Shown: one piece after another, positions 16,479 through 60,407 of the stretch | Layout of the letters: each line of letters opens with the position of its first letter | How positions within the stretch are numbered: the stretch's first letter is position 1 | Source: Anaerolineae bacterium | GTDB lineage: Bacteria > Chloroflexota > Anaerolineae > B4-G1 > SLSP01 | Direction of reading: 5' to 3' | Assembly: GCA_034433375.1 (NCBI GenBank) | Contig: DAOUAQ010000116.1 | Coordinates: 16,442 to 80,441, forward strand | DNA: 64,000 bases | Translations under genes and position numbers: made by a program | The notes under the pieces: generated by a model | Databases searched by the model: none | Seen by the model: the letters and a program-made list of their open reading frames with translations, nothing else | What the model was told of the DNA's origin: nothing

Positions 16479-18218
16479 ATGGCCGAATCAAGTAATAGAG
16501 ACAACACAAACATCGCTGAAAACCAGGACATTCATGCCTGGCAGCAGCAACTCATTCGTGGTGTGTTGCTGGCGCTGGTTATAGCTGGCCCTCTGGCAAT
16601 CTTGGCTGGCTCGTATTATGCGTATGTGACCAATACCCTGTGGTTCATCCCTGGTTATCTGATCGCCTATGGTCTCTTGGTGGCGGCTTCATTCTGGCGG
16701 CGCGGTCCTTACCTGGTGCGGGTCGGTATTTTTCTAACATTCATCTACATCATTGGAGTTCTTGACTTCTTTCAGGATGGACGTGGGGGCAGTGGGCGGA
16801 TTTTCTTGCTAGGTTTGGTCGGCATGGCGAGCTTGTTTCTGAACCGTCGTGGGCGGGTGCTGGTCTCGCTTCTTGTTTTAGCCACTATGATATTATTAAC
16901 GATTGCCTTTTCTTCGGGCTGGGTCAGTATCCTCCCGCAGAACGAGGTGAATTCGACCGATTGGGTTGGGTGGGTGACTAACACCGTGGTTTTGCTGTTG
17001 ATCATGGTTTTGTTACAGGCGGGAAGCGGTTACCTGGTTCCCAACATGATGGCCGCTTTGGAGCAGGGTCGGCGTTTGACGCGCGAGTTGGAGGCGCAGC
17101 GCGCCGCTTTGGAGCGCACGGTCGCCGAGCGGACTGAAGCCCTGACACGGCGCGCGCGTTACCTGGAAGCGACGGCGGATGTGGCGCGCGGTGTCTCGGC
17201 GGTGTTGGAGATTGGCGATTTACTGTCAACGTCAGTGCGTTTGATTAGCGCGCGGATGGGCTTTTATCACACCGGCCTCTTTTTCATTGACCCCGCCGGC
17301 GAGTGGGCGGAACTGCAGGCGGCTTCCAGTGTGGGGGGGCAGCGTATGCTGGCGCGTGGGCATCGTCTGCGCGTTGGCGAGCAAGGCATTGTCGGCGATG
17401 TGGCAGCGCGCGGCAAACCGCGTATTGCCCTCGACGTAGGGCAAGATGCCGTTTTCTTCAACAATCCCGACTTGCCGGAGACGCGCTCCGAGATAGCCCT
17501 GCCGCTTCGCGCGCGCGGACAAGTCTTTGGAGTGTTGGACGTGCAGAGTACGGAACGCGAGGCGTTCACTCAGGAGGATGCCAATGTGCTACAAACCCTG
17601 GCCGACCAGGTGGCGTTGGCGATTAGCAACGCGCGTTTGTTCTACGAAGCGCAAGAAAGCCTGGCAGCTCAACAACGTTTGTATGCTCAGATAAGCGGTG
17701 AGGCCTGGCATACACTGCTGAGCGAACAAGGTGCGTTAGGCTTCGTCAAGCAAAAAGGCGCTCTGCTGCCGGCCGCGGACGCATGGAGTCAAGAGGCTGT
17801 TCAGGCGTTGAAAACTGGGCAGGTAATGCAGGGCGATCGCACCGCGGGGACGCCGACGCCGACGCTGGCCGTACCCATCAAGAGCGGCGACAGGGTGATC
17901 GCGGTGCTTGATGCGCAACTGCCCACCGGGACTACCGCGTGGACACCGGATCAGATTGCGTTGCTGCAATCGTTGTCCGAGCAGGTGGCGCAAGCCATGG
18001 AACGCGCGCGGCTCTACCGGGACACGCAGCGCCGCGCCGCGCGCGAACGTCTGGTCGGCGAAGCAACCGGGCGCATCCGCGAGTCACTTGATATTGAAAC
18101 CGTACTCAAGACGACGGCGAGTGAGATCCGTCAGGCGCTCGATCTGGACACTCTGGTGATCCGCTTGGTAACGCCCGAGACGGACGCCGTCCCCCGGCCT
18201 GGCGCAGAAAGGACATAA
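16479..18218 (+). CDS. Membrane-anchored GAF sensor (type A) with the family tail
   Basis: The ORF runs 16308..18218. The likely start is ATG 16479 ('MAESSNRDNT') with 'GGTGGGAGAG' upstream. ~6 TM segments are present. GAF motif 'FYHTGLFFIDPAGEWAELQAASSVGGQRMLARGHRLRVGEQGIVGDVAARG...NPDLPETRSEIALPLRARGQVFGVLDVQS' is present. The tail is 'QRRAARERLVGEATGRIRESLDIETVLKTTASEIRQALDLDTLVIRL'. Confidence 0.7.
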   Translation: MAESSNRDNTNIAENQDIHAWQQQLIRGVLLALVIAGPLAILAGSYYAYVTNTLWFIPGYLIAYGLLVAASFWRRGPYLVRVGIFLTFIYIIGVLDFFQDGRGGSGRIFLLGLVGMASLFLNRRGRVLVSLLVLATMILLTIAFSSGWVSILPQNEVNSTDWVGWVTNTVVLLLIMVLLQAGSGYLVPNMMAALEQGRRLTRELEAQRAALERTVAERTEALTRRARYLEATADVARGVSAVLEIGDLLSTSVRLISARMGFYHTGLFFIDPAGEWAELQAASSVGGQRMLARGHRLRVGEQGIVGDVAARGKPRIALDVGQDAVFFNNPDLPETRSEIALPLRARGQVFGVLDVQSTEREAFTQEDANVLQTLADQVALAISNARLFYEAQESLAAQQRLYAQISGEAWHTLLSEQGALGFVKQKGALLPAADAWSQEAVQALKTGQVMQGDRTAGTPTPTLAVPIKSGDRVIAVLDAQLPTGTTAWTPDQIALLQSLSEQVAQAMERARLYRDTQRRAARERLVGEATGRIRESLDIETVLKTTASEIRQALDLDTLVIRLVTPETDAVPRPGAERT

Positions 18219-24428: not shown

Positions 24429-26234
24429 ATGTGGACGCGGATTAAACGCTACTTTACATTGCCGGTTTTTGAGGATGAAGAGAAGTCCCGGGTTGCGCGC
24501 CTGCTTATCACGATCCTCATCACGTTATCCATCATAGTCGTGGTCGTGGATGTGCTTATGATCGCGCTTTATGGTCTCCCAAAGCGCTTGGCAGATACCA
24601 GTCCGTTTATCGGTCTTATCGTGATCGTCGGTTCGACGATAGGGGCTTTTGCGCTCATCCGCAGAGGGCGCACCAGCGGATTGGCGATCATGATCGTGTC
24701 GCTCATGTGGTTGCTGATTACTTATTGGATCTGGACTGTGGAGGGCTTAGGCGGCGGACACACCAGTTATGTCTACGCCCTCATTATTGTCCTTGCCGGT
24801 CTGCTGTTAGGCGCGCGCAGCGCCATCGTATTTACCGGCTTGGGGTTTCTGGCGGTGGTTGTCGCGTACTTTATCGAGCACGGAGGAGGGCTTCCAGTAG
24901 GCGTGCCGGTCTCATTTTTGGATTTGATCATCATCCTCGTTGTTTTTGCATTGATCGGCGTCTTCTTAAGATATGCGATAAAAAGTATGCAAGGTGCTAT
25001 TGATCGCGCCCGACATTTTGCCCAGGCGCAGGCTGCGGCGAACCGCGAATTGGATGCGATCCGCGTCTCGTTGGAGCAGCGGGTGGCGGAGCGCACTGAA
25101 GATTTGGAGCGTCGCTCGATCCAACTACAGGCTGCGGCTGAAGTGGGCCGCGCCGCGGCGGCGCTGCGCGACCTCGAGGTGTTGTTGGTCGAGGTTGCCA
25201 AAATGATCGGAGAAAGCCTGAATTTCTATCACGTGGGCATTTTTCTGCTGGAAGAGAATAGCCGCTACGCCGTTTTGCGCGCCGCGAGTAGCCCGGAAGG
25301 GAGGCAAATGCTGGCGCATGGCTATTCTGTGGCCGTTGGGACGCCCGACATCATCGGCGTGGCGACGGCGAATCGTGAACTACGCATCGCTTCAGACACC
25401 GGCGAGAACGCCGTTTCCTTCGCCGGTTCCTTGCTCTCGCGTACACGCGCGGAATTGGCATTGCCGTTGGCTGCTGGCGACCGTTTGATCGGCGTATTGG
25501 ACTTGCACAGCCTGGATCCCGCGGCTTTCACCGAGCAAACCATCTCCGTGATGCAGTTGCTGGCCGATCAAGTTGCCATCGCCATTGAGAACGCGCAGTT
25601 GTTTGCGCAACGTGAAGAATCGCTGGAAGCCGAACGCCGGGCCTATGGTCAGATCAGCCGCGCAGCCTGGCAGCAAATCTCACGTGTGGAAGGCGCGCTG
25701 CGTTTCGTCGTGGATACGCCGGGGTCAGTGCGTCCCGCTGCCGGCGAAACGCCGCCGGCCATGCTCCAGGCGCGACAGACTGGCCAGTTGATCACCGAAG
25801 AAGCGTCCACATTGGCCGTGCCGATTCAACTGCGCGAGGGAGTGAGTATCGGCGCGCTGCGCCTGCGTAAACCGGAGTGGGCGGCAGACGAGGTTACGTT
25901 GGTAGAAACGCTGACCGAACAGCTCGGCGCGGCTCTGGAAAGCGCGCGGCTCTATCAGGAAACCCAACGCCGCGAGGCGCGCGAGCGTATCACCCGTGAG
26001 ATCACCGAAGACATACGCCGTTCCGTGGATATCGAAATGATTCTGCAATCCGCCGTAACCAGCCTGGGGGAAGCCCTGGGTGTGCCGCGCACCTATGTAC
26101 GCTTGATGTTGGAAGAAGCGGATTTACCATCCGCCGAACGCGCCGCCCTGGAATCAACTCCGGCGCTGGATCTCGCCGCGGATGTCAACGGCGCCGCCAG
26201 TGTGGGGCAAGGAGAAGAACACCATGAGTCGTGA
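24429..26234 (+). CDS. Membrane-anchored GAF sensor (type A) with N-terminal 'MWTRIKRYFTLPVFEDEEKSRVARLL' motif and the family tail
   Basis: 601 aa. ~6 TM segments are present. GAF motif 'LNFYHVGIFLLEENSRYAVLRAASSPEGRQMLAHGYSVAVGTPDIIGVATAN...LSRTRAELALPLAAGDRLIGVLDLHS' is present. The tail is 'QRREARERITREITEDIRRSVDIEMILQSAVTSLGEALGVPRTYVRL'. Confidence 0.7.
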   Translation: MWTRIKRYFTLPVFEDEEKSRVARLLITILITLSIIVVVVDVLMIALYGLPKRLADTSPFIGLIVIVGSTIGAFALIRRGRTSGLAIMIVSLMWLLITYWIWTVEGLGGGHTSYVYALIIVLAGLLLGARSAIVFTGLGFLAVVVAYFIEHGGGLPVGVPVSFLDLIIILVVFALIGVFLRYAIKSMQGAIDRARHFAQAQAAANRELDAIRVSLEQRVAERTEDLERRSIQLQAAAEVGRAAAALRDLEVLLVEVAKMIGESLNFYHVGIFLLEENSRYAVLRAASSPEGRQMLAHGYSVAVGTPDIIGVATANRELRIASDTGENAVSFAGSLLSRTRAELALPLAAGDRLIGVLDLHSLDPAAFTEQTISVMQLLADQVAIAIENAQLFAQREESLEAERRAYGQISRAAWQQISRVEGALRFVVDTPGSVRPAAGETPPAMLQARQTGQLITEEASTLAVPIQLREGVSIGALRLRKPEWAADEVTLVETLTEQLGAALESARLYQETQRREARERITREITEDIRRSVDIEMILQSAVTSLGEALGVPRTYVRLMLEEADLPSAERAALESTPALDLAADVNGAASVGQGEEHHES

Positions 26235-28743
26235 CAAATCAACGCAAGCCGGCGCGCCGCCAGACTCCATGCGCGAGGAAGCGGCTGCCCCGCTTCAACC
26301 GCAGGACCTTGAGGCGCGTTGCGCTTTCTTGCAACACTTGTTGGACCTCAACCCTAACTTCTTCTTCGTGCGCGACCGCGAAGGCCGCTTTGTCTTCGTC
26401 AACAAGGCGCTGGCCGACGCCTATGGCACCACCGTGGAGGCCATGATCGGGAAAACTGACGCCGATTTCAACGTGAATCCGAAGGAAGTGGACGCGATCC
26501 GGCGGGGCGATCTTGAGGTGATGGAGTCTTTACAGAACAGATTTATCCCTGAAAGTCCCATCTTGCGTCACGGGCGTTGGGTTCAGACGACCAAATTGCC
26601 GATTGTGGATGCGAATGGAGTGGCGCAGCAGGTGCTTGGCATCTCCAGCGACATCACCGAACGCATCCAGATGGAGGAGGCCATTCAGGCGTCGCTGGAA
26701 CGGCGCGGGCGTCAGGTGCAGACCTCCGCTGAAGTGGCCCAGGAAATCGCCGCAGCCACGGCGCTGGATGAACTGCTCCGGCGCGTCGTCACCCTGGTCA
26801 AAGAGCGTTTTGGCTACTATCACGCGCAAATCTTCCGCTATGATGCTGCCGCGCGGGTGATGCGCCTGGTGATCGGTTACGGCCTCGTCGGGCAGCGTAT
26901 GTTGGCGGCCGGCCATCACGTCGCCATGGGCCGGGGCGTAGTCGGCGCCGCCGCCGCGACCGGACAGCCTGTGCTGGCGACCGACGTCACCCGCGACCCC
27001 GACTGGGTTCCCAACACCTTCTTGCCGGGCACGCGCGGTGAATTGGCCGTCCCGATCAAACTGCGCGACCAGATTCTCGGTATTCTCGACGTGCAGAGCA
27101 ACATCACCAACGCCCTGACGACCGAAGACCAACTGCTGCTCGAAGGCTTGTGCGGGCAAATTGCCATCGCCATGCAAAGCACTCAACTGCTCGAATCGGC
27201 CAACACCTTCCGCCAGGTCATCGAATCCTCTGGACAGGGCATCTGTATGGCGACGTGGGGCGGGGCGCTGACCTATGCCAATCCGGCATACTGCGCCTTG
27301 CTCGGCGAGACCGATCTGGAGGCGCTGCTAGGCCAATCCTTCTTCGCCCATTATCCTGAAACTGTGCAGGCGCGACTGCGTGAAGAGATCATGCCCGTGG
27401 TGTTGGAGAAAGGGCAATGGCAGGGTGAACTGGCCTTACTCTCGGTCACGGGCAACGTGATCCCTACGCTTGAGATTCTGACCCTCGTATGTAACGAACA
27501 GGATGAGCCGCGTTATCTGACGCGCCAGGTCACCGATATTACCGCGCGCAAGGCGATGGAAGACGCCCTGACGATGGAACGCCAGTTACTCCACGCGCTG
27601 CTCGACAGCGTGCCGGATCACATCTACTTCAAGGATATGGAAAGCCGTTTCATTCGCATCAGCAGCGCCAACGCCGGCTGGCTCAGTCTCGCTGACCCGT
27701 CTCAGGCGGTAGGCAAGACAGACTTCGACTATTTTGGCGCCGAACATGCCGAGAAAGCCTACGCTGACGAACGGCTTATCCTTGTCTCCGGCCAACCTAT
27801 GCTCGACATGGAAGAAAAGGAGGTTTGGCCGGACGGCCACGAGACGTGGGTTTCTACCTCCAAGATGCCGCTGCGCGACGCCGAAGGGCGCATCATCGGC
27901 ACGTTCGGCATCTCGACCGACATCACGGCGCGCAAACTCGCCGAAATGGAGCGTGATCGGGCCTTGCGCGATATGGAGGTGCAGGCGCAGCAATTGACCG
28001 GCGTCGTGAACGACATGACACTCATCCAGAAGACAATGGCGGCTCTGACCGCGGCGCTTACGTTTGAGGAAGCCGTCCAGATCCTGTTGTCCTCCGTCGT
28101 CGCGGCAGTGGAGGCCGATCGGGTCAGCATGTTCCTGATTGACAACGAGCAGATGATTCGCGTCGGTTTGTATCCCTTCGATGAAACCCAACGCGCGCAG
28201 ATCGGCGAAGTGACGCCGCTGTCGAATTTCCCTTTGACCCGGCAGGTGGTTGAGACGCGCCGCCCCCTCGTCGTTGCCGGCGACGCGCCGCAACTTCAGG
28301 AGCACGCCCGGCGGGCTTTTGCCGCTTTTGGGATTGTCGCCCACGCGACTATCCCCTTGATCGGGCGCGCGGGCGTCTTGGGGACTTTGTCGGTCAATCT
28401 CATCACCTCTAAAAGCGCCTTCACCGATCACGATGTGCGGATGCTGCAAATGTTGGCCGATCAAACCGCCCTTGCCATCGAGAATATCCGGTTGTTGGAA
28501 CAGACGCGCGTGCGCGCTGAACGCGAGCGGCTGGTGCGCACAATCACCGACCGGATTCGGCGCGGCACCGACCGTGATGTGATTGTGCGCGCGACGCTGC
28601 AAGAACTGGTGCAGATGCTCGACGCTTCCAAGGCGGTGCTGCGTCTGGGCAACCGCGAGCGGCTGATGTCTGTGTTGGAAATGGACGCGTCGCCAGATGA
28701 ACATCTGATGCAGGGTGTGACGCCTGCGCTGGATGAAAACTGA
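26224..28743 (+). CDS. Soluble PAS, GAF, PAS, PAS, GAF sensor with a family-tail variant
   Basis: The ORF runs 26182..28743. The likely start is ATG 26224 ('MSRDKSTQ') with 'AAGGAGAAG' upstream. It overlaps the previous gene by 11 nt. PAS segments are 'LLDLNPNFFFVRDREGRFVFVNKALADAYG...GISSDITERIQMEEA' and 'LLHALLDSVPDHIYFKDMESRFIRISS...GISTDITARKLAE'. GAF motif 'LVKERFGYYHAQIFRYDAAARVMRLVIGYG...NTFLPGTRGELAVPIKLRDQILGILDVQS' is present. The tail is 'RAERERLVRTITDRIRRGTDRDVIVRATLQELVQMLDASKAVLRL'. Confidence 0.7.
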   Translation: MSRDKSTQAGAPPDSMREEAAAPLQPQDLEARCAFLQHLLDLNPNFFFVRDREGRFVFVNKALADAYGTTVEAMIGKTDADFNVNPKEVDAIRRGDLEVMESLQNRFIPESPILRHGRWVQTTKLPIVDANGVAQQVLGISSDITERIQMEEAIQASLERRGRQVQTSAEVAQEIAAATALDELLRRVVTLVKERFGYYHAQIFRYDAAARVMRLVIGYGLVGQRMLAAGHHVAMGRGVVGAAAATGQPVLATDVTRDPDWVPNTFLPGTRGELAVPIKLRDQILGILDVQSNITNALTTEDQLLLEGLCGQIAIAMQSTQLLESANTFRQVIESSGQGICMATWGGALTYANPAYCALLGETDLEALLGQSFFAHYPETVQARLREEIMPVVLEKGQWQGELALLSVTGNVIPTLEILTLVCNEQDEPRYLTRQVTDITARKAMEDALTMERQLLHALLDSVPDHIYFKDMESRFIRISSANAGWLSLADPSQAVGKTDFDYFGAEHAEKAYADERLILVSGQPMLDMEEKEVWPDGHETWVSTSKMPLRDAEGRIIGTFGISTDITARKLAEMERDRALRDMEVQAQQLTGVVNDMTLIQKTMAALTAALTFEEAVQILLSSVVAAVEADRVSMFLIDNEQMIRVGLYPFDETQRAQIGEVTPLSNFPLTRQVVETRRPLVVAGDAPQLQEHARRAFAAFGIVAHATIPLIGRAGVLGTLSVNLITSKSAFTDHDVRMLQMLADQTALAIENIRLLEQTRVRAERERLVRTITDRIRRGTDRDVIVRATLQELVQMLDASKAVLRLGNRERLMSVLEMDASPDEHLMQGVTPALDEN

Positions 28744-28779
28744 TGAGAAGTTTGTGGAGATACAGCAAGGAGACCTCCG

Positions 28780-29139
28780 ATGCCCTATCAAATGCAGATG
28801 CGTGAAGACGGTATTTTGCAGATCAGGTTTATTGGTGTGTTGGAAAGCGCCGATTTACCACAATTCATCAGCGAATTCAATCGCTACCTGGAAGCTGCCA
28901 CCCCAGAAAAACCACTGCGTACCTTGTCCAAGGCAGATCAGCCCGGCATGAAGTACTCTCCGGCGGTGCGCAAAGCCTTTGCCGACATGAATTCTGATCC
29001 GCGTTTGGGAAAGTCCGCGACTATTGGCGTGGATCGGTATACGCGCGTGCTGGCAGGATTTGTGTTGAAAGCGACCGGACGCGAAAACATCCGTTTTTTT
29101 GACGCTGAAGAACTGGCGGTGGCTTGGTTGTTATCCTAG
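28780..29139 (+). CDS. Small SpoIIAA-like/STAS-like (DUF3478-type) protein, first of a tandem pair
   Basis: 119 aa. RBS 'AAGGAGA' lies upstream. The sequence is 'GILQIRFIGVLESADLPQFISEF...ATIGVDRYTRVLAGFVLKATGRENIRFFDAEELAVAWL'. The C-terminal '...RFF-aEE-A--WL' ending is typical of SpoIIAA-like family members as I recall them. This is a family-level guess. Confidence 0.5.
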   Translation: MPYQMQMREDGILQIRFIGVLESADLPQFISEFNRYLEAATPEKPLRTLSKADQPGMKYSPAVRKAFADMNSDPRLGKSATIGVDRYTRVLAGFVLKATGRENIRFFDAEELAVAWLLS

Positions 29140-29147
29140 GGGGGACT

Positions 29148-29504
29148 ATGGCGCACCAATTGGGAATGGGTAGTGATGGCATTCTGCGGCTGATGTTCAT
29201 CGGCGATACGGACAAACTGGGCGCTGAAGCCTTGATCGCGGATTTTGGGCCATATCTGGCGCACGCGACGGCGGAGAACCCTCTGTGCATCTTGTGGGAC
29301 GATACCCGTGGCGGCAAAGCCTCTTCAGAAGTGCGTAAATTCTATGCCGACCTCAACCGTGATCCCCGTATAGGAAAAGTCGCCATTTTTGGCGCGAAAA
29401 ACTATGGCCGGGTCTTGGGTGAGTTTATCCTGAAATTCACCGGGCGCGACAATATCCGCTTCTTTAACGCGCAGGAACAGGCGCTTAGTTGGCTAAAAGA
29501 ATGA
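29148..29504 (+). CDS. Small SpoIIAA-like/STAS-like protein, second of the tandem pair (paralog of 28780..29139)
   Basis: The ORF runs 29124..29504. The paralog-consistent start is ATG 29148 ('MAHQLGMGSDGILRLMFIGDTD'). The sequence continues '...VAIFGAKNYGRVLGEFILKFTGRDNIRFFNAQEQALSWL'. It is ~40% identical to the upstream gene. Confidence 0.5.
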   Translation: MAHQLGMGSDGILRLMFIGDTDKLGAEALIADFGPYLAHATAENPLCILWDDTRGGKASSEVRKFYADLNRDPRIGKVAIFGAKNYGRVLGEFILKFTGRDNIRFFNAQEQALSWLKE

Positions 29505-29544
29505 CGGGCGTGCTTTTTGCGGGTGCAGAAAAAAAGGACTCTCT

Positions 29545-31890
29545 ATGACAGAGATCACATTGGAAGAATATAAGCAACTGGTCGAAACACAGGGGCATCA
29601 ACTCCTCACCGGCGTGCGTTCTGCGGCGATGGGCGACATGGATGTGGCGTGGGAAGTCCCTGAAGGCGTGCCCATACTCACTGCCCTGGCCGTCGGGATC
29701 GGGATGCTCATTGACGACATCCGCGACATGCGCGCCGTGCAGGAGCAGGCGCGTATGGTGGAGAACCAGAGTCGCGCATTGTTAGCCGTCGTGCAATCCG
29801 CAGCCCTGGGCGACTTTGATGTGGTTGTCGAAGTGCCCGAAGGCGTTGAGGAATTGTCGGAATTGGCCGTGGGCATTGATATGATGCTCGACGACATCCG
29901 TGACATGCTCGAAGCGCAGGAGCGTGCGCGCGCCGAGATCGAAATCTCCAAACAGCAACTCGAGGCGGCATTGGAAGAGATGCGCGCTACCCAACGCCGC
30001 TATATCCAACAAGAGTGGGCAGGTTACGCGGCGGCGGAGTCGGGTTACGCTTACGTCAGAGGCGTAGAGGAATTGCAGCCGGTCACAGATGATGCTCAGG
30101 CGCTGCGGTCAACGGCGCTTACGGACGCAGTGGCCCAGCGCGCCACGGTCGTCACGGAAGATGTCGCCGAAGGGCAGACACTCGCGTTGCCCATCGCATG
30201 GGCCGGTGAAACCATCGGCGTGCTCGGCCTCACCCGTCCGGCCGCCCACCCGTGGGGTGCCGACGAAATTGCGGCGGTCGAAGAAATCGTCGAGCAAGCC
30301 GGCTGGGCCTTGGAAAACCAACGACTCTTCGATGAAACGCAGCGCGCCCGCGCCCTTCTGAGCAAACAAATCCGCGAATTGGACTGTCTCAACGACATTG
30401 GCCGCCGGATCGCCGAATTTCCGGCGATCCCTGACCTGTTGCAATGGACGGCAGAACGGCTTCCCGCAGCTATGCAATACGCGGATGTGTGCGTCACGGC
30501 CATTGAATATGCCGGACGGTTTTATGGCACCATTGAAGCCATTGACCAGGCGCGCCAGATGGTCAGCGGCCTCCGCCTCGGTGATGAGCAAGTCGGTCGT
30601 ATTGTCGTAGCATACACTGAGGAGCACACATTTCTCGACGGGGAGAGCGCCCTGTTGGGTGATGTGAGCCGGCGTCTTACCGGCTACATCGAGAACCGCC
30701 AACTCCTTGAGCAGGCCGAGACGCGCGCTGTGCAGGAGCAAGCGTTGCTTGAAATCGCCGGCAAAATCGGGACGAGTGAAGACATGGAGGGCTTATTAAC
30801 CGTTCTTCCTGAAATTATCCCGCCGCTGCGTCATCTGGCTCCGGTGGATTTGATGTCGGTAGCGACGTATACCCCCGGCGAATCATCGTTAACGGTCTTT
30901 GCCGTGGCGGTGGAAACCGATGTCGCGCACTTCAGCCCGGCGGGAACGCGCCTGCCATTGGAAGGTTCCGCGCCCGGCTGGGTTATCACGCACAAACGAC
31001 CCTGGCTAGAAGCAGACATGCGGCGTAGGGTAACCTTCCCTGAGGATGCAGACTTGATAGCGGAAGGGGTCGTCTCGCGGCTTATTGTGCCCCTGCAATT
31101 CGGCGATCAACTGGTTGGTACGCTGAATATGGCGAGCCGGCAGCCGCGCGCATTCACTCAGGAGCGCATGGCGCTGTTAGGACAGGTCGCCAACCAATTG
31201 GCCCAAGCTATGGAACGCGCCCGTTTGCTGCAAAACACCCGCGCGGCGCTGGCGGCCGAAGCTGAAACGCGCCGCAGTTACGAGCGTCGGGAGTGGCAAA
31301 CATACCTGCAAGAGAACCGCAGACTTCGTCGGAATGCTTTCGTCTATGATGCCGCGACGAAATCAGGGGGGGGCCAGGGCCGGGTGGTTGTCCAGCCTGA
31401 TTTCTGGCGCCCGGAGATGCTGAAATCTTTACGCGAGTCCACCTTGGCGACGACTCACGATGTGGCAGACGATGCCGCGCCGACACACGGACAGCAGGCG
31501 GCCGCCACACCTCCAGCTGGAAAACGGATCGGAATGGCCGTTCCCATCGAGATGCGTGGTCAGGTGATCGGGGTGCTGGGCGTCGAAGACCCCGAAGGCA
31601 TGTGGCGCAGTTCTGCGGATCAGTTGGCCTTGATCCAATCTGTTGCGCAGCAGTTAGGCCAGGCGTTGGAAAGCGCGCGCTTGCTCGAGGCCACCCAACG
31701 CCGCGCCGCCCGCGAACAGCGCGCGCGCGAAATCACCGACACCATTCGCGCCGCGTCCACCATCGAGGATGCCGTGAAACGCGCCGTGCAGGAAATCGCG
31801 CGCGTTTTGAACGCCTCCGAAATGGTCGCCCGTCTGGGACCGGAAAACCTGTTGACGCCGCGTGAGGAGGGAGAGGCTAATGAACAATAG
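29545..31890 (+). CDS. Soluble tandem HAMP repeats, GAF domains and the family tail
   Basis: 781 aa. The N-terminus carries two ~50-aa repeats: 'AAMGDMDVAWEVPEGVPILTALAVGIGMLIDDIRDMRAVQEQAR' and 'AALGDFDVVVEVPEGVEELSELAVGIDMMLDDIRDMLEAQERAR'. GAF-like segments follow ('TLALPIAWAGETIGVLGLTRPAAHPWGADEIAAVEEIVEQAGWALENQRLFDETQRA'). The tail is 'QRRAAREQRAREITDTIRAASTIEDAVKRAVQEIARVLNASEMVARL'. Confidence 0.65.
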   Translation: MTEITLEEYKQLVETQGHQLLTGVRSAAMGDMDVAWEVPEGVPILTALAVGIGMLIDDIRDMRAVQEQARMVENQSRALLAVVQSAALGDFDVVVEVPEGVEELSELAVGIDMMLDDIRDMLEAQERARAEIEISKQQLEAALEEMRATQRRYIQQEWAGYAAAESGYAYVRGVEELQPVTDDAQALRSTALTDAVAQRATVVTEDVAEGQTLALPIAWAGETIGVLGLTRPAAHPWGADEIAAVEEIVEQAGWALENQRLFDETQRARALLSKQIRELDCLNDIGRRIAEFPAIPDLLQWTAERLPAAMQYADVCVTAIEYAGRFYGTIEAIDQARQMVSGLRLGDEQVGRIVVAYTEEHTFLDGESALLGDVSRRLTGYIENRQLLEQAETRAVQEQALLEIAGKIGTSEDMEGLLTVLPEIIPPLRHLAPVDLMSVATYTPGESSLTVFAVAVETDVAHFSPAGTRLPLEGSAPGWVITHKRPWLEADMRRRVTFPEDADLIAEGVVSRLIVPLQFGDQLVGTLNMASRQPRAFTQERMALLGQVANQLAQAMERARLLQNTRAALAAEAETRRSYERREWQTYLQENRRLRRNAFVYDAATKSGGGQGRVVVQPDFWRPEMLKSLRESTLATTHDVADDAAPTHGQQAAATPPAGKRIGMAVPIEMRGQVIGVLGVEDPEGMWRSSADQLALIQSVAQQLGQALESARLLEATQRRAAREQRAREITDTIRAASTIEDAVKRAVQEIARVLNASEMVARLGPENLLTPREEGEANEQ

Positions 31891-33283
31891 GGTACGAGAA
31901 TCAACCACCAATGTGCTCACGGGTAGCGTGTTGCTTGAAGATCAGTCGCGGCGCACTCGTCTTTTGCGCACTGTGGCATGGGTTGTTTTGCTGGCGTGTT
32001 CTGTGGCGCTGCTTGGTTATCTCATTGCTTTGTTTTCCATTCCCCACCTGCCCATTTCCGCGCTTGTTGCTGATGTGCTGGCGATACTGTCTATGCTCGC
32101 CGTGCTTGCCTTGCTCGCGCGCGGACACTTCGAGCGGGCGCTGCCACTCGCCATCGTGAGTTTGACCGTGCTTCTGTTTGTCGCCATGTATTTTCTCAAC
32201 GGGACGCGGGGCCCGGCGCTTTTACTGTCGCCGCTGATTATGCTCATTGCCGGTATCGTTGGTGAGCGACGCTATGCTCAACCTACCACCATCGTTCACG
32301 TCCTCGTGTATGTGATCTTTGTAATCCTGGAGGCTCTCGGCGTACTCACGCCTTATCAGATGTCGCCACAGAGTTCACGATTAGTCTGGATTGGGGTTTT
32401 CATTCTGACCGCTGCCATAATGGTCATGATTAACCGGCAATTTATCGCTTATCTGGCATTGGCCCTCTCTGCATCGCTGAAGCGCGAGGAATCATTGGCG
32501 GAAATGAGCCGGCGCGCGCAAGCGTTGGCTGACGCCGAGCGTGTAGCGCAAACGCAAGCGCAAGAAAACGCGCGGCAGCTTCAAGAAGTGGCGCAAGAAT
32601 ACGCCGCTTTCCTGGAGCGCATCGCCACCGGTGACTATAGTGCGTCGCTGAACCTGGGTTCGTTAGCCGAACGGCCCAACTTGCCGCAAGCGTTAATTAG
32701 TTTGGGAGAATACATCAATACGACGGTTGCCAGTCTGGTATCGGCGTTGGATGAAGCGCGGAGTGCCCAGCAGACCTACATGCGCCAATCCTGGCAGAGT
32801 TTGATGGAAACCGGGCGCGCACCCGGCGGGTATCGTTATCACGTGGATGAGGAGACTGAAACGTCGCGCCTGGAGATCGCCGAAAACGCCTGGCTGCCGC
32901 CGATGACCCAGGCGGTGCAATCCAAGCAGATCGCAGTCGGCAAGGAGGAGTTGGCGCTCCCCATCGCTTCAGGCACGCGGGCGCAACTCATCGGTGCGTT
33001 AGGGGTGCGCCGTACCCGGCAGGAAGAATGGAGCGAGGACGAACTGGCGCTGGTGACAACGGTGACTGACCAACTGGCGCAAACTCTGGAGAACCTGCGC
33101 CTGCTCGACGAGACAACGCGCCGCGCGGCGCGTGAACAGATGGCCGGTGAAATTACCGGCCACATCCGCGAAGCGGTGGAGATCGAAGAAGTTTTGGAGC
33201 GCGCGTTGAGCGAACTTGGACGCGCTCTGGCTGTCGAGCGCGGCGCGGTATATCTGACGCTGCAAGAACAGGGAAAAGTCTGA
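31880..33283 (+). CDS. Membrane protein (type B): TM segments, HAMP-like/coiled-coil region, short GAF-like domain and the family tail; paralog of 10858..12243
   Basis: The ORF runs 31862..33283. The likely start is ATG 31880 ('MNNRVRES') with 'GAGGAGGGAGAGG' upstream. It overlaps the previous gene by 11 nt. Shared motif 'LGEYINTTVASLVSALDEARSAQQTY' is present. The tail is 'TRRAAREQMAGEITGHIREAVEIEEVLERALSELGRALAVERGAVYL'. Confidence 0.65.
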   Translation: MNNRVRESTTNVLTGSVLLEDQSRRTRLLRTVAWVVLLACSVALLGYLIALFSIPHLPISALVADVLAILSMLAVLALLARGHFERALPLAIVSLTVLLFVAMYFLNGTRGPALLLSPLIMLIAGIVGERRYAQPTTIVHVLVYVIFVILEALGVLTPYQMSPQSSRLVWIGVFILTAAIMVMINRQFIAYLALALSASLKREESLAEMSRRAQALADAERVAQTQAQENARQLQEVAQEYAAFLERIATGDYSASLNLGSLAERPNLPQALISLGEYINTTVASLVSALDEARSAQQTYMRQSWQSLMETGRAPGGYRYHVDEETETSRLEIAENAWLPPMTQAVQSKQIAVGKEELALPIASGTRAQLIGALGVRRTRQEEWSEDELALVTTVTDQLAQTLENLRLLDETTRRAAREQMAGEITGHIREAVEIEEVLERALSELGRALAVERGAVYLTLQEQGKV

Positions 33284-35128: not shown

Positions 35129-36217
35129 TTGCGTATGATGAAACGTTGGCGTTTGTGGGGATTGATTGTCCTGTTGTCCTGCGTGGCGGCCTGCCAGCCG
35201 GCGCAGAATGTCGCCTGGCCTACGCCAGCGCCGATCGCGCCCGCGCGCGCTAAGCTGCGGGTGTTCTGGGTCAACAGCTACACCGAGGACGACTTCTGGT
35301 CGCAGCAGGTGCGCATCGGGGTCCTGGAGACGTTAGCGCGTCGGGGATATACGAGTGTTGACGGTACACTGGAAATGGAAACCTTCCACATGGGGATGCG
35401 GCAGGTCGCAGTGATTGAGGACGTAAGGCCGGCAGCGCTCCTGGCCGTTGAGCGGCTCGCAGATTTTCAGCCGGACATCGTCATTGTTTCTGGCGACGAA
35501 GCGACACGCACCATCATTCCGTTGTATTTTGATCCCACCTTGCCTTTCGTTTTCTGTGGTGTGAACAGTGACCTGCGCCAGTACGGGTTGGATCTACTGA
35601 ACGTCACCGGTGTTTTGGAAGCCCTGCATCCCGTACAAACTGTAGCGATGGCCTATGCTTTTGTCGAAGACGCGCAGCAGTATATGGTCCTCGGCGACGG
35701 CTCCGTGTCGGGCAAGGCCCGCGCCCTGGCGGCTTATGCCGCTCTGCAAAACAGTGCGTACGGCACGCCGGCGCCGCTGTTCCGCTTGGCGGGAACCTGG
35801 TCTCGTTGGCAAACGACGGTGCTGGAAGATGCGCGCGCGGCGGATTTCATCTTGCTGGCGAGCCATCAGGGTATCGTTGATGACAGTGGAAATCCCATTG
35901 ATGAGCAAGAGGTTATCGCGTGGATGCTGGAAAACTCTCCCGTGCCGGTTTTTGCTCTATCTAACGTTGCGATCATCAACGGCGCAGTGGGTGGCCTGGT
36001 CTCGTATGGGTATGAAGAAGGCGTTTCGGTCGGAGAAATCGTGGTGCGGCTGGCTGCCGGCGAGTCGCCGGCCGATATCGAAATTCGCGGCCCGGCGCGC
36101 AATCTGCTCGCGGTCAATCTGGCGGCCTCACGCCGCTGGAATTTGCGCATACCCGTTATGTTCCCGATCGCGGCACGCATCTACGGAACCTTGCCCGTTG
36201 CAGAAGGAGGTCATTAA
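35129..36217 (+). CDS. Stand-alone COG2984/ABC_sub_bind-type periplasmic binding lipoprotein (paralog of the N-terminal domain of 14204..16462)
   Basis: 362 aa. A lipoprotein-like signal is present ('MRMMKRWRLWGLIVLLSCVAAC'). The body is 'LRVFWVNSYTEDDFWSQQVRIGVLETL...PDIVIVSGDEATRTIIPLYFDPTLPFVFCGVN'. Its stop overlaps the ATG of the next gene (TAATG). Confidence 0.6.
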   Translation: MRMMKRWRLWGLIVLLSCVAACQPAQNVAWPTPAPIAPARAKLRVFWVNSYTEDDFWSQQVRIGVLETLARRGYTSVDGTLEMETFHMGMRQVAVIEDVRPAALLAVERLADFQPDIVIVSGDEATRTIIPLYFDPTLPFVFCGVNSDLRQYGLDLLNVTGVLEALHPVQTVAMAYAFVEDAQQYMVLGDGSVSGKARALAAYAALQNSAYGTPAPLFRLAGTWSRWQTTVLEDARAADFILLASHQGIVDDSGNPIDEQEVIAWMLENSPVPVFALSNVAIINGAVGGLVSYGYEEGVSVGEIVVRLAAGESPADIEIRGPARNLLAVNLAASRRWNLRIPVMFPIAARIYGTLPVAEGGH

Positions 36218-40698: not shown

Positions 40699-40796
40699 GG
40701 TGGAGGACCGGAAACCGGCTGGACAGCGCGTCGCAGTGGTTCTCTGGCAGGATTTGAGTGTATTCGATCCGCTGGTTATGGGAAAGGTTATGTAAC

Positions 40797-43700
40797 ATGA
40801 CGATGATGGACACAGAAAAAAGTAAGGACCACGGGACTCAGGGGGTGGGGGCCTTGCGCCAACAGATGACCGCGCTATCACGCAAGGATGGGGGGATTTT
40901 CCTCCAATCTATGTTGGACGCCATCCCTAACCCGATTTTCTACAAGGATATGGCGGGCGTTTATCGCGCCTGCAATCGCGCCTTTGCCGAGGACGTTCTC
41001 GGCGTGCCGGGTGAACGTATCATCGGGCGGACTGTCTATGACCTGGCGGAATCTATGCCTCAAGCCCTGGTGGAAACCGATCATCCCAAAGACCTGTTGC
41101 TGCTGCGCGCGGCTGGCTCTGACGTTTACGAGACGGCGTTATGTTACGCGGACGGCATTTTCCACGACGTCGTCATCCACAAAACCACCCTGGCCGCGTC
41201 AGATGGTCGCATTGACGGTGTGGTGAGTGTGCTGCTCGATGTCACCGACTTCAACAAGTCGGAAGAAAAGAGCACGATGCTGCTTGAGTTGACCCAGGCC
41301 GCCATCGCCGAAACCGAGGTGCTCTATCACCTGAGCAGTTCCCTCATCGCTTTTGACGATCTGACGGGCCTTTTGCGGGCCGTGGTGGATGGCGTAGCGG
41401 ATATGCTGCTGGCGAACCAGGTGATATTGACGACGGTGGACCTTGAGCAGCGCAAAGTCATCCACTTCGTCAAGGGAGGCGTCGGCGTTGCCGGCGTTGC
41501 GCCGGAGATGTCCTTCGATGAACTGTGGAATGGTTTGAGCGGCGCGGCGTTGCGCAGCCTGAAGCCGATCCTCTCTACCAAGAGCACCCCCGACCCGCGC
41601 GAAAGCCCTGAAATCCAACGGCAGCTTGGCGAAGCGAGCATCGGCTCCGTGGTGGTCGTTCCCTTGCGGTACCAGGAGCGGACGTTGGGCACGTTAGCGG
41701 CTGTCAATCGTCTGGAAGACCCGGATTTCACGAAGAAGGATGTGAGCTTGATGGTGGCGATGGCGAACCAGGTCGCGGCTGCCGTCGAAAGCGGACATCT
41801 CTTCGCCAAATTGCAGCATACGGCGACAACTATGAGCACCGCTGCGGAAATCTCACAGGCGTCCTCGTCAATTTTGGATCTGGACGAATTGCTGCCGCAA
41901 GCCGTGGATCTCATCCGCCAACGCTTTAACCTGTACTACGCGGGCATTTTCCTGGTGGATGACAGCGGCGAGTGGGCCGTCCTTAGCGCGGGAACCGGCG
42001 CGGCGGGACGCGCCATGTTGGCTGAAGAGTACCGTGTGAAGGTAGGCGGCGAGTCGTTGATCGGCGCTTGTGTGGCGACCGCCTCGCCCTGCATGGCTCA
42101 GGATACGACATCAGCGCAGCGACGCATGGCGCTTGTGTATTTGCCGCACACACAGTCGGAGTTGGCGCTGCCGATGATTAGCCGTGACGCGACGATCGGC
42201 GCGATGACCGTGCAATCGGTGCTGGCAGGCGCTTTCACCGCCGAGGACGTCACGGCGCTGCAAATCATGGCGAACCAATTGGCGAACGCCATCCAGAACA
42301 TCCGGCTGCTGGAGAAAGTACGCACTTCCCTGGCGGAGACCGAGGCGCTCTATCAAACAGCGCGCGCGATCAGCGGCGCGCGCTCCTTCGAGGACATCCT
42401 TGAGGGGCTTTTTGACACAATCACGTTTATGCCTCTGAGCGAGGCGGTCTTGCACGTCATTGTCGCGCGCGATCCCCTCAAGGTGAACTCGTACACGACG
42501 ACCCGCGTCGGCGGTGAGCGACAGACGCACGTGACTTACACGACGTCCGTTGACGATGTCGCGCCACTGCTGGATGATCCGCAGCAGTTCGTCTTCTATG
42601 GCGACCCAAAAGATGAAGACGCCGCCATACCTGAACCGGCGCGCGCGCGCATGGCGCAGATGGGCTATCGTTCGACGCTGACCACCGGCTTGACGGCGCA
42701 CGGCGAACTGGTGGGGTTCCTCACGTTTAGCAGCGCCGCGTCGCAGCACATCATCGCGGCGCGCGCGGTGCAGGGCGCAGTGCGCGCTTTGGCCGATCAG
42801 ATCGGGGTTGTGCTGGATAACTTCCTGCTTGGCGAGCAGACACGCCTGCGCGCTGAACAACTCGAAACATTAAGCGTGATCGAATCCGCGCTTTCGGAGA
42901 CCAACACCGAGGCCGAGATACTGGACGTGTTTGTCCTGGCTGTGCGCGCTACTGCCACCCTCACGGCCTGGCTGGTGTACACCGACTCCGCCGCCGACGG
43001 CGTGGTGACGACGCAGATTGTGGCTTCCTGGCATAATGGGGCCATTCAGCCCGCTGACCCGCTGCTCAACCGCTCGCTTTCCCCGAACACTTTCCCTATG
43101 TCGCGTCTGTGGATGGGCGATCTGGATCAAATTTCTTACACCTATGATCTACACCAGGACAGCCCGATTGACGCCAGGGCGCGTGAATGGGCCATTGAGC
43201 ATGGCTTTGTGTCGGTGATGGTGCTGCCGATGTTGAGCGGCGGACACTTGCAAGGGGTCATCGTGCTCAACTGGGCTGAACCCTACGTTTTGTCTAGCAC
43301 CGAACAATTCCTCTTGCGGCGTCTGGTGCGCCCGACTGTGGCGTTGCTCTCGCGGCGACGCGCTTACCTTGCCGAGGAGGCTGCGCGCGCCGAAAATGAG
43401 CGCCGCGCGATGCAGTTCCAGACCGCGGCAGAAGTGGCCCACGCCGCCTCCTCCATCATTGACCTGGATGAATTGTTGCCTCATGCCGTGAATTTGCTCC
43501 GTGAGCGTTTCGACCTCTACTACGTTGGTGTTTTTCTGGTTGATGAAACCAGAGAATGGGTCGCGTTGCGCGCTGGTACGGGCGAGGCTGGCCGCATTAT
43601 GTTGGAACGCCAGCATGGTTTTACCGTCGGCGGCGGTTCGATGATCGGGCGGTGTGTGGCTGAGGCCACGCCGCAGATCCCCGAAAGCGTAGATACTGCG

Positions 43701-46700
43701 GTGCGTTACGTCAACCCGCTCTTGCCCAACACGACGGCGGAAATCGCTTTGCCGCTGGTCAGCCGCAACCAGATGATCGGGGCCATGTCAATCCAGTCCA
43801 GCAAAGTGCGCGCCTTCTCCGAGACCGACATCACCATCTTGCAGACAGTGGCTGACCAGTTAGCCAACGCGATTCAGAACGCCCGGCTGTTCGATCAACT
43901 GAATACCTCGCTGACCGAAAGCGAAATGCAGACAGAAGTGAGTCTGGCGATCAACGAAGCGCAATCGGTTGAAGAGATCGTGCGCGCGGCGGCGCAGGTA
44001 GGTGAGTTTATCGGCATGGCCGGCGTCTCCTTGCGCCATTTCACGCGCTGGGATGAGGCCGGGCGGCCTGTGAGCCAGGATGTTTACAGTTTGTTGACCC
44101 GTGAAGCCGGCGAAGAATTCCGCGTTATGGAGAACATCGTGATTAACCAGGAGCTTTTAGTCTGGATCCTCGCCGACACACGCCGGATGCATGTCAGCAG
44201 AGATTTGGTCACCGACATGGCCTTGCCTGAGGCTATTCGCGCCAGCTTGCTTGCGCAGGGCTATAACAGTATGATCTGCACGCCGCTCGGCACGCGGAAC
44301 CGTTTGTTGGGATTCCTGGTCCTGTTTGATACACGTCCGGTGGAGGAGTTCCCAGCCCGCTATATCCAGGTTTTTGTGCGGACGCTCATTGATCAGGTTT
44401 CGACGGGATTGGATCGCTACACGCTGCTCCGCGAAAGCGAACGGCGCGCCGCGCGAATGGAGACGGCTTCTGGAATCGCCCGCCATGCCGCGTCAATTCT
44501 GGATCAAGAGACTTTGCTCTCCGAAGTTGCCGGACTGATTCGTGAGCGTTTCAACTTATATCACGTGGGCATGTACATGGTGGACGATTCCGGACAGTGG
44601 GCGGTCTTGCACGCTGCTTCCGGCGACATTGGCCGCGCGCTGCTGGCGCAAGGCCAGCGCTTGCAGGTAGGCGCGGGTTCACTGGTGGGCGCGTGTGTGT
44701 CCGCCGCTGCCCCATACAGCGTCTTGAATCTGGACGAGGCATCACGCCGTCTCTATGCCGACGCCGTCACCGCTACCGGCTCGGCCATCGTGTTGCCGCT
44801 GATCAGCCAGAACGTCGTCATCGGTGCGGTGGCTATGCATTCGCAGGAAGCGGCCGCTTATTCTAAAGAGGACATCACCATCTTCCAGACGATGGCCGAC
44901 CAACTGGCGACGGCTATCGGCAACGCGCGCCTCTTTGCGCAGTCACAGACCAGCCTTGAAGAGTTGCAGCGGGTGCAGCAACGCTATGCCGTGGAAATGT
45001 GGGATGGCTACGTCGAGCAGCGGGACGTTTTCGGCTATACCTACGATCTGAACGAAGTCGCTCCATTGCCTGTTGAGCAATCCAGTGCCCCGGCTGATCT
45101 TTGGGGCGGCAAGCTCTTCATGCGCAGCGGTGAAGAGGATGGCGATGGCGCGCTGTTGGTCGCGCCTTTCGATGTCAGGAGCGAGCCGGTGGGCTTCCTG
45201 AGTTTTGAGGAACCCGGCGCGTCGCGGACGTGGACCGAAGACAATGTCGCCGTCATCGAGGCCGTCCGCGAGCAGCTTGCCCTGGCCCTGGAGAACCGTT
45301 TGTTGATTGACCAATCCCAAAATGCACTGCGTGAAGCCCGGCAGCGTGAGCGCGAAGTTCGCTTCCTCCAGGGGGTCGCCGCCTTCCTCAATGCGACGGA
45401 GAGCATCGTGGCCTCTCAAAACGAATTGCGGGAGCACCTGCAGGCATTCATCCCGGTGGACTCGCTTTCTATCACCGGGTATGACGCCAATCGTATGTTG
45501 CACTTTTTGGGGGAGCAGACCGGCAACGTGCTCAACCTGGAGAATTGGGCGGGGGTCGAATTGGGAAAAGGAACGGGATACACACTGGCGGCTGAGACGG
45601 GCGAACCTTTGCTGCACGATGACATCCGCCAGACCCCGCGTTTCTGGGAAGATGAGCACTTGATTGTGGCGGGAATGGTCGCGCGCGCTGTCATGCCCTT
45701 GCGGTTAGGCGCGCGCATCCTGGGGACGTTGAACCTGGAGAGCCGCCAACCTGGCACATTCTCACGGCCTGAGCTGATGCCCATCCTCTCGCAGGTGACG
45801 GCGCAAGTCGCCTCGGCGATGGAGCGCGCCAACCTGCTGCAACGCGCCCAAGAGAGCGCCGGCGAGTCGCGCACCCTCTACGAAGCCACCAGCGCGCTGG
45901 CCGAAGCTACCAGCTACGAGACCGTGCTGCGCGCCATCGTCGGACACACCATTCTGTCGGAGTATGCCTGGGCCGAGATTGCGATGTTCATTGTTGATCC
46001 CGAAACCGGCGCAGAACAGAGTTTGTTGGAAGTCGTCAGTTCGTGGAGCAGTCAGTCCTCTCTTGCGCCCCTGGAAGTCGGGCGGCGGATGTCGGTCGCG
46101 GAGTTCCCGGCGCTGCAACGCCTCGCGCCGGGGCAACAACTGTACATCTGCGAGGACATCAATATGGCGCTGGACATGGATCCGTCGGTCCGCAACTTCT
46201 ATCTTGAGCAGGGCGTGCAGGCATTTGTGATGGCGCGCCTTTCTGCAGTCGGCGTCACCAGCGGCGGCGGAATCGGCGTGCTCCAGATTCGATTCTCGGA
46301 GCCATACCACCCATCGGAACAGGACGTGCGTCTCTACAACAACATCGCCGATCAGGCCGCTGTCGTGCTCTCTAACCAGAAGCTGCTGCGGCTGTCTGAG
46401 GCGCGCACCGAGCAGTTGACCGCCGCCGTGGACTTCGCGAACCTCGCCACGGCCCTCTCGGAGCGCGAAGATTTGCTCAAGCGATCGGTAGATTTCTTTA
46501 AGACGCGCTTTGGTTTCTACTATGTGGGCATTTCGATGCTGGACGAGCAAGGGGAGTGGGCCGTCTTGCAGGCCGGCACCGGCGATGTCGCGGAGACGCT
46601 GCTGCGTATGGGGACGCGTGTGCGTGTTAATGCCAGCTCGATGGTCGGTTGGAGCATCGTCAACGACCGACCACGCATCGCCCAGGATGTAACGCGCGAC

Positions 46701-49558: not shown

Positions 49559-49819
49559 ATGGCTTACGTAATTACCGACATTTGTGAGCGCGCTGGCGTT
49601 TGTGTTGATGTATGTCCCACGGACTCGATTCATGCTGTAGAAGGCGACGTCAAGTGGCCTACATACTACATCAACCCTGATTCTTGCATTAACTGTGGCG
49701 CGTGCGCTGCGGAATGCCCCAACGAGGCCATCTTCGACGAGGCTGACGCTGAGGCCGCCGATTTCGTGCAGAAGAACGCCGATTTCTTCACCAAAGGCCC
49801 CGGCAAAGATCTGATATAA
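49559..49819 (+). CDS. Small 4Fe-4S ferredoxin
   Basis: 86 aa. Cys motifs are 'CERAGVCVDVCP' and 'CINCGACAAECP'. A strong RBS is present. Confidence 0.8.
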   Translation: MAYVITDICERAGVCVDVCPTDSIHAVEGDVKWPTYYINPDSCINCGACAAECPNEAIFDEADAEAADFVQKNADFFTKGPGKDLI

Positions 49820-60366: not shown

Positions 60367-60376
60367 ACTCCACCTC

Positions 60377-60407
60377 CACGTATTTAAGTGTATCACGTAA
60401 ATACGTG
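60377..60407. promoter_or_regulatory. 10-bp-arm inverted repeat CACGTATTTA-N11-TAAATACGTG upstream of the antitoxin gene; candidate TA autoregulatory operator
   Basis: Arms lie at 60377-60386 and 60398-60407. The site sits just upstream of the RBS of the minus-strand antitoxin gene. Confidence 0.45.

Follow-up and report, generated by a model that had tools for sequence, protein, structure and literature searches.

Two SpoIIAA-like paralogs encoded directly upstream of a HAMP-like/GAF protein in the GAF-array operons of Chloroflexota

Two small neighbouring genes, referred to hereafter as A and B, are located in a 64,000-nucleotide stretch of the genome of an Anaerolineae bacterium (phylum Chloroflexota; assembly GCA_034433375.1, contig DAOUAQ010000116.1, positions 16,442 to 80,441 of the forward strand), which will be called the window. 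The main finding is that genes of this kind are coupled to one particular neighbour. That is, in ~35 distinct Chloroflexota loci the STAS-like gene or genes stand directly upstream of a gene whose protein starts with a HAMP-like unit. A and B belong to a known protein family, and the new part is their coupling to the HAMP-like/GAF protein, of which no description in Chloroflexota GAF-array operons was found in the searchable literature. We propose, tentatively and at somewhat less than an even chance, that A and B are non-phosphorylated accessory or input subunits of this downstream protein, to which they are predicted to bind. The features concerned are the following, in window coordinates:

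26182..28743, + strand: upstream neighbour, a PAS-GAF-PAS-PAS-GAF protein of 853 aa (Pfam)
28780..29139, + strand: STAS-like paralog A, ATG start, 119 aa, SpoIIAA-like of the PF11964 type
29148..29504, + strand: STAS-like paralog B, ATG start, 118 aa, SpoIIAA-like of the PF11964 type
29545..31890, + strand: downstream protein of 781 aa, with two HAMP-like units, then GAF domains (Pfam) and a C-terminal tail module
29590..29754, + strand: HAMP-like unit 1, residues 16-70 of the 781-aa protein (custom unit profile; no Pfam match alone)
29767..29931, + strand: HAMP-like unit 2, residues 75-129, strongly acidic (custom unit profile; sub-threshold match to Pfam HAMP)

Gene order in Chloroflexota GAF arrays

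The order of genes was constant in every array locus examined, running from a PAS/GAF protein through the STAS-like gene(s) to a HAMP-like/GAF protein of ~750-1400 aa, and it was kept even where the STAS-like protein was only ~23-31% identical to B. Moreover, each of the array loci encodes a conserved counterpart of the N-terminal 170 aa of the 781-aa protein, always in the gene that immediately follows the STAS-like gene(s). An earlier note on the window, drawn up from the sequence alone, had placed A and B inside a sensor array. This placement holds in the window, in which the two genes sit between the PAS-GAF and the HAMP-like/GAF proteins, and extends to homologous GAF arrays, since STAS-like gene(s) were present in all array loci examined. 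Simpler relatives have a compact cassette made up of a PAS/GAF protein, a STAS-like gene, a HAMP-like/GAF protein, a GAF histidine kinase and a stand-alone REC protein, and at one locus (L025) the unit-bearing protein is the histidine kinase itself, consisting of a unit, two GAF domains and HisKA-HATPase.

Relatives at 37-100% identity (31 for B and 35 for A) were found in many metagenomes and metagenome-assembled genomes of Anaerolineae type, and A has an identical copy (P0032) in NCBI/Logan. A genome scan identified 13 species, all of them Chloroflexota (Anaerolineae and Thermoflexus/Thermoflexia), and a metagenome scan gave 26 further loci. The A/B family is a core, vertically inherited part of the GAF-array two-component system in Chloroflexota (Anaerolineae and Thermoflexia). 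For PF11964/DUF3478/DUF7793 and GAF arrays, the only literature found was a structural-genomics paper from 2010, with nothing on these arrays.

HAMP-like units of the downstream protein

The units are acidic, ~55 aa long, and follow the pattern LL..V.S.A.GD.DV..EVPEG..EL.ELA.GI.MM.DDIR.M. At each locus a custom hidden Markov model (HMM) of the unit matched no protein other than the one encoded immediately behind the STAS-like gene(s), and it left the canonical HAMP domains of the other array proteins unmatched. Unlike most other array members, the 781-aa protein has neither an N-terminal sensor nor a transmembrane segment. Unit 2 gave weak matches to the HAMP chains of HtrII and of chemoreceptors, and a weak AlphaFold2 (AF2) model of the region showed long helices parted by two 14-residue connectors, which is the layout of a poly-HAMP array. 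As far as this weak model goes, the units resemble the soluble poly-HAMP modules of the Aer2 type in their cytoplasmic helix-connector-helix build, in connectors of ~14 residues and in amphipathic sequence 2 (AS2) running into the next AS1. They differ from the Aer2 type in being divergent and very acidic, and in forming a subfamily of their own that was found only after STAS-like genes.

Organisation and paralogy of genes A and B

The description of the two genes in the earlier note as a pair of ~119-aa paralogs is correct: both open reading frames (ORFs) are on the + strand, they encode 119 and 118 aa with 49% identity, and all the N- and C-terminal strings that it quoted were found in the translations. 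The similarity between A and B (49% identity over 117 aa, E-value 2e-37) identifies them as true paralogs and not a chance match. The longest ORF of gene B, at 29124-29504, would begin with TTG and encode 126 aa. However, all homologs begin with MAHQ or MVHQ, with M1 invariant in an alignment referred to here as A1, and the true start of gene B must therefore be the ATG at 29148, which is preceded by a G-rich run resembling a Shine-Dalgarno sequence.

The intergenic gaps measure 36 nt upstream of A, 8 nt between A and B, and 40 nt between B and the gene for the 781-aa protein, and each of the three contains a Shine-Dalgarno-like motif. A simple scan of positions 28400-29900 revealed neither a promoter-like site nor, on the + strand, anything resembling a terminator. 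Given the tight spacing and the absence of such sites in between, A and B look co-transcribed with their neighbours. The two paralogs have diverged at different rates, A having evolved faster than B (mean p-distance 0.33 versus 0.26). In one genome (L005/L020 9443-10001; GCA_019873645.1, JAIOAX010000008.1) the A-like and B-like genes are separated by a 558-bp spacer with an internal tandem repeat, which is probably a repetitive insertion; the corresponding gap is 8-14 nt in other genomes.

Fold and family

Both A and B consist of one small domain without enzymatic function and fall into the SpoIIAA-like superfamily (PF11964/DUF3478 and DUF7793 type). The SpoIIAA-like profile PF11964 (gathering cut-off 25) matched B with 27.0 bits (E-value 7.5e-6) and A with 23.2 bits. 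The overlapping family DUF7793 (PF25056) matched B with 24.4 bits against a gathering score of 26, and did not match A. Neither protein gave a match to STAS (PF01740) or STAS_2 (PF13466) at E<=10, and no meaningful match was obtained with NCBIfam. Among 95 members of the family, PF11964 was matched by 90 and DUF7793 by 80 (E<=0.01), and the STAS, STAS_2 and CRAL_TRIO profiles by one each. An exhaustive profile search returned 1222 cluster representatives at E<=1e-3, nearly all of them ~120-aa single-domain proteins.

The structure of B predicted by AF2 from a 38-sequence alignment has a predicted local distance difference test score (pLDDT) of 91, a predicted template modelling score (pTM) of 0.83 and the layout b-b-a-b-b-a-b-a-b-a. 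When this model was compared with the PDB using Foldseek, the top match was the DUF3478 protein 2q3l (E-value 2e-6, template modelling (TM) score 0.74), and further neighbours included SpoIIAA, the STAS domain of SLC26A11, RsfB, RsbS and other anti-sigma antagonists. By sequence, the sole match in the PDB was the uncharacterised protein 3bl4 (E-value 1e-3), and the closest homolog of B is named 'STAS/SEC14 domain-containing protein [Anaerolineae bacterium]' by NCBI. The profile scores together with the predicted structure confirm the STAS-like/SpoIIAA-like fold, as the earlier note had supposed for both proteins. The exact family is the orphan PF11964/DUF7793 group, labelled STAS/SEC14 by NCBI.

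The founders of PF11964/DUF3478 (Shewanella Sfri_0576/Shew_3102, PDB 2ook and 2q3l; Arthrobacter 3bl4) consist of the same single ~120-aa domain and provide the best structural match. In these founders Phe114, Ala120, Trp123 and Leu124 pack helix alpha4 on the sheet (PMC2954212), and the same C-terminal Phe...Ala..Trp-Leu motif is present in the A/B family: F106, A112, W115 and L116 are invariant in A1 and kept in 87-94 of the 95 sequences of a wider alignment, A2. The founders differ from A and B in that they share only ~20% identity with them and are proteobacterial, and either orphan or linked to UspA, whereas A and B are encoded in a GAF-array kinase operon and have a basic motif of their own.

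Conserved residues and the phospho-site position

Helix alpha2 begins at residue 60 in the model of B, so that the equivalent of SpoIIAA Ser58, as deduced from the predicted secondary structure, would be S59 in B and S60 in A. Both window proteins carry Ser here; their orthologs in the same kind of operon (A1) have A, G, P, V or T. Among 95 relatives its composition was S56, T8, D8, P6, N4, G3 and A3, with S or T in 64 of the 95. Such a mix of residues suits a helix N-cap, suggesting a structural role and not an obligatory phospho-acceptor. A conserved Ser/Thr at the usual phospho-site, which the earlier note had suggested looking for, is not present, the column being variable and occupied by A/G/P/V in close orthologs.

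Other positions are strongly conserved. R63 is found in 93 of the 95 family sequences, A79, F106, A112, W115 and L116 are nearly invariant, and K57, K64, R74, K77, R88, K96, R100 and N102 are mostly conserved. The family thus has a basic motif, G56-K57-x-S-x-x-A-R63-K64 (GKxSxxARK), to which R74, K77, R88, K96, R100 and N102 add. Basic residues predominate among the conserved positions of the STAS-like family, and the HAMP-like units are very acidic. A complementarity of overall charge was considered and rejected, given that the isoelectric points of the whole STAS-like proteins range from 4.8 to 9.2; it is only the conserved residues that are basic.

Copy number of STAS-like genes and HAMP-like units

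The numbers of STAS-like genes and of HAMP-like units in the following protein were as follows:

~17 distinct loci, all one clade: two STAS-like genes, two units
16 loci, L011 included: one STAS-like gene, one unit
L049 1524-2350 (gap-free): one STAS-like gene, two units; L024 2049-2900 is alike, but with a run of N at the gene junction
L051 26-1426 (contig Ga0316576_10220432): at least four STAS-like genes, downstream content beyond the contig

At L051 four STAS-like genes stand in tandem, the last one being cut by the end of the 1.4-kb contig, and this is the highest copy number found. At L011 (8390-8560; GCA_050303915.1) the 'GD.D' motif of the HAMP-like unit has an in-frame TGA in place of its conserved Gly codon, which could be a sequencing error, a pseudogene or a case of recoding. 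In the tree of the STAS-like proteins the single-copy genes appear nearer to A, which would make B the derived copy, and the tree of the units suggests that their duplication is older than, or independent of, that of the genes.

A proposed role at the HAMP-like module

What the STAS-like genes accompany is the HAMP-like module at the N-terminus of the next gene product, and not the kinase/receiver end of the array, which points to an input or regulatory role. In the mechanism that we envisage, A and B would attach to the acidic HAMP-like units by their conserved basic surface, probably acting as a pair, and this docking would set the HAMP conformation of the downstream protein. This conformation would then be relayed through the GAF domains of the partner to the terminal histidine kinase of the array. 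Docking could be modulated by a small ligand, anionic or hydrophobic, bound at the N-terminal end of helix alpha2, and control would be exerted by binding and not by a Ser phosphorylation cycle of the SpoIIAA/RsbV type. That A and B may work as a pair fits with the existence elsewhere of tandem fusions (P0140, P0149 and P0174; 252-288 aa with two STAS-like domains each) and with the fact that the family founders crystallise as dimers (PMC2954212).

A more specific version of this proposal, which is speculative and in our judgement has perhaps one chance in four, would be that the STAS-like proteins cap a soluble HAMP module as detachable sensors, possibly loaded with a ligand, and so stand in for a membrane or sensor domain; gene copies and units would then have expanded together (one, two, perhaps four). 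If so, this would be an undescribed route by which signals are fed into HAMP/GAF relays, and a first function for PF11964/DUF7793.

A number of observations weigh against binding to the HAMP-like units. First, the assignment of the units to HAMP is itself sub-threshold: unit 2 scored 20.8 bits (E-value 5e-4) with Pfam HAMP (PF00672), for which the gathering cut-off is 25, and the single-sequence AF2 model of the region reached a pLDDT of 70 and a pTM of only 0.31. Second, the PAS/GAF neighbour upstream is equally conserved, so that adjacency alone does not discriminate between it and the HAMP-like/GAF protein as the partner. Third, a distant DUF7793-type relative (P0203; L012 3922-6294) lies outside any GAF array, directly after a gene for an extracytoplasmic function (ECF) sigma factor and one for a 463-aa protein without Pfam match, a hint at a possible role in sigma/anti-sigma circuits for other branches of the family. 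Fourth, a strict one-to-one correspondence of STAS-like genes with HAMP-like units had to be rejected, since L049 has one gene and two units without sequence gaps, and because all the loci with two genes and two units form one clade, the match in copy number amounts essentially to a single evolutionary event. Finally, in mirror-tree and partial Mantel comparisons of A and B with units 1 and 2, the best partial r was 0.32 with an uncorrected p of 0.016 in six tests, and no specific pairing (A with unit 1, B with unit 2, and so on) was significant after allowing for the six tests. The covariation in copy number is thus suggestive but is not proof.

STAS-fold proteins that act through binding offer the closest analogies to the proposed mechanism, in particular MlaB and the STAS domains of SLC26/SulP transporters. 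In both cases a STAS-fold module controls its partner through stable binding, with no phosphorylation cycle involved; MlaB is the STAS subunit of the MlaFEDB transporter (PMC7367683). The partner proposed for A and B would differ from those of MlaB and SLC26 in being a soluble HAMP-like/GAF protein and not a transporter, and no sequence relationship was detected. By analogy with SpoIIAA, RsbV and RsfB (PF01740), which have the same fold and size and are significant Foldseek matches (1h4z, 1thn, 8ih8, 4qtp and 6m36), A and B may be viewed as small stand-alone regulators, protein-protein binding being known for the former and proposed for the latter. SiaC, of the SiaABCD system of Pseudomonas aeruginosa, is a small STAS-like protein that controls a signalling enzyme and not a sigma factor. 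It is switched by Thr phosphorylation, with SiaB as the dedicated kinase and SiaA as the PP2C phosphatase. SiaC (PDB 6k4f) is a weak structural neighbour of the B model (E-value 1.3e-2, TM score 0.49); unlike in its system, a SiaB-type kinase and a SiaA-type phosphatase are absent from the window and from the array loci.

Should A and B bind as proposed, the known uses of the STAS fold would extend beyond sigma-factor partner switching and transporter regulation to a phosphorylation-independent control of HAMP relays. Should binding fail, they would simply belong to a family not yet characterised. For PF11964/DUF7793, a family of considerable size, the invariant coupling to a HAMP-like/GAF protein gives a concrete partner candidate. 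The pair also offers an entry point to the wiring of the Chloroflexota arrays, in which one hybrid kinase receives the input of ~20 sensor-GAF proteins that have no output domains.

Alternative explanations

One alternative is that the main role of A and B is to carry or sense a small ligand, either nonpolar/amphiphilic or anionic (e.g. a nucleotide). We regard this as unlikely as the whole explanation, although it could be combined with the proposed docking in the form of a ligand-sensing cap. The closest solved fold is that of the DUF3478 protein 2q3l, and the authors who described the founders proposed open and closed states and the binding of nonpolar ligands by analogy with CRAL-TRIO (PMC2954212), an idea echoed in the STAS/SEC14 label of the family. 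Furthermore, the conserved G-K-x-S...R-K at the N-terminus of the helix, with the other R/K residues, may resemble an anion site. Against this, the identity to the founders is ~20%, the CRAL_TRIO profile touches a single member of the 95, and a pure carrier role would leave the invariant operon position unexplained.

The earlier note favoured an output function. On this view A and B would bind the REC or HATPase domains of the kinase and array, or the C-terminal tails of the array proteins, and pass the signal on to an effector. The array indeed has no obvious output domain, its kinase ending in two REC domains and related loci having stand-alone REC proteins, and STAS proteins are able to bind GHKL domains, SpoIIAA-SpoIIAB complexes being among the Foldseek matches. 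Nevertheless, the position of the genes tracks the HAMP-like protein and not the kinase or REC proteins, four genes lie between B and the kinase in the window, and no effector-type gene co-occurs. The notion of a missing output link is therefore not favoured by the conserved association, which involves the N-terminal HAMP-like module encoded by the next gene and not the kinase/receiver end of the array, and we consider it quite improbable.

A scaffold resembling the stressosome (RsbR/RsbS/RsbT), in which A and B would form an oligomeric core for ~18 GAF-array proteins docking through their shared C-terminal tail module, would find some backing in RsbS and other stressosome STAS chains being structural neighbours, and in the ~55-aa tail that almost all array proteins have in common at their end and that might serve for docking. 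This is very unlikely, since the array proteins lack a C-terminal STAS domain of their own, unlike RsbR, and no RsbT-like kinase was found with Pfam in the window, where the only HATPase domain is that of the histidine kinase. In addition, small arrays of 3-4 GAF proteins keep exactly one STAS-like gene, beside the HAMP-like protein.

Least probable of all is the partner switching put forward in the earlier note. In its classical form, A and B would be anti-anti-sigma-type proteins that receive a phosphate on the Ser opening helix alpha2 from a SpoIIAB/RsbW-like kinase and lose it again to a PP2C phosphatase, with the release of a sigma factor or another effector whose gene lies elsewhere. In its favour are the significant structural match to SpoIIAA, RsfB, RsbS and RsbV, the Ser at the equivalent position in both proteins (with S/T in 64 of the 95 members) and the ECF sigma factor gene beside P0203. 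Against it, close same-operon orthologs carry A, G, P, V, D or N there, PF01740 and PF13466 do not match, alignment to SpoIIAA with hhalign covered 33 columns at a probability of 2%, and the founders were likewise noted not to conserve the SpoIIAA serine (PMC2954212). Moreover, neither the 64-kb window, including the small ORFs examined in its intergenic gaps, nor any GAF-array locus encodes a GHKL Ser kinase, a PP2C phosphatase or a sigma factor.

The array and other features of the window

The array runs on the + strand from the start of the window to position 49454 (~49 kb) and comprises ~20 genes, nearly all of which encode GAF domains according to Pfam scans of the large ORFs. The GAF domains of its proteins are preceded by sensor modules of various kinds (Peripla_BP, dCache+HAMP, PAS, MASE11 and ABC_sub_bind). 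Two further members are of note:

35129..36217: 362-aa protein with a weak ABC_sub_bind match (Pfam), a signal-peptide-like N-terminus and no GAF domain
40758..49454, + strand: terminal hybrid histidine kinase of 2898 aa at the end of the array, with PAS, ~8 GAF, HisKA, HATPase_c and two REC domains (Pfam)

The 362-aa protein keeps the same array position in related loci, and its lack of a GAF domain contradicts the statement in the earlier note that A and B are the only non-GAF components. Non-GAF inserts were also seen in related arrays (L009 2781-3899, L011 2282-3400 and L014 2510-3310), in the form of FIST/FIST_C, Methyltransf_19 and a stand-alone receiver after the kinase, and in these arrays a divergently transcribed THUMP-like methyltransferase gene follows.

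Nearly every array protein ends, after its last GAF domain, with a shared module of ~55 aa ('tQRRAAREQl..EIT..iR.s.D.e.VL.tA..E....L.l....V.L') and then a short acidic tail; examples are encoded at 28560-28700, 31700-31850, 24230-24380 and 18040-18180. This module is absent from A, B, the 362-aa protein and the terminal kinase. It looks like a GAF domain cut short after its first helix and strand, and could wire the array by docking or by strand complementation. Two array proteins of ~475 aa (10810-12243 and 31862-33283) match only the C-terminal third of GAF profiles (positions ~88-133). They may contain GAF domains whose N-terminal part has degenerated and which could complete the truncated-GAF tails found on other array proteins. 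At several junctions (6567/6655, 16308/16462, 19785/19939, 26182/26234 and 31862/31890) the start of the longest ORF overlaps the preceding gene by 30-150 nt, so that the true starts are probably located further downstream and the protein lengths listed are upper bounds.

Beyond the array the genes are unrelated to it (PolX, ROK, VanW, GH94, Wzy and dnaN). A small ORF just after the kinase gene (49559-49819, + strand) was judged by eye from its sequence to be ferredoxin-like, with 2x[4Fe-4S], and two ORFs on the - strand, at 59673-60122 and 60112-60396, were recognised in the same way as a PIN-like toxin and RHH-like antitoxin pair.

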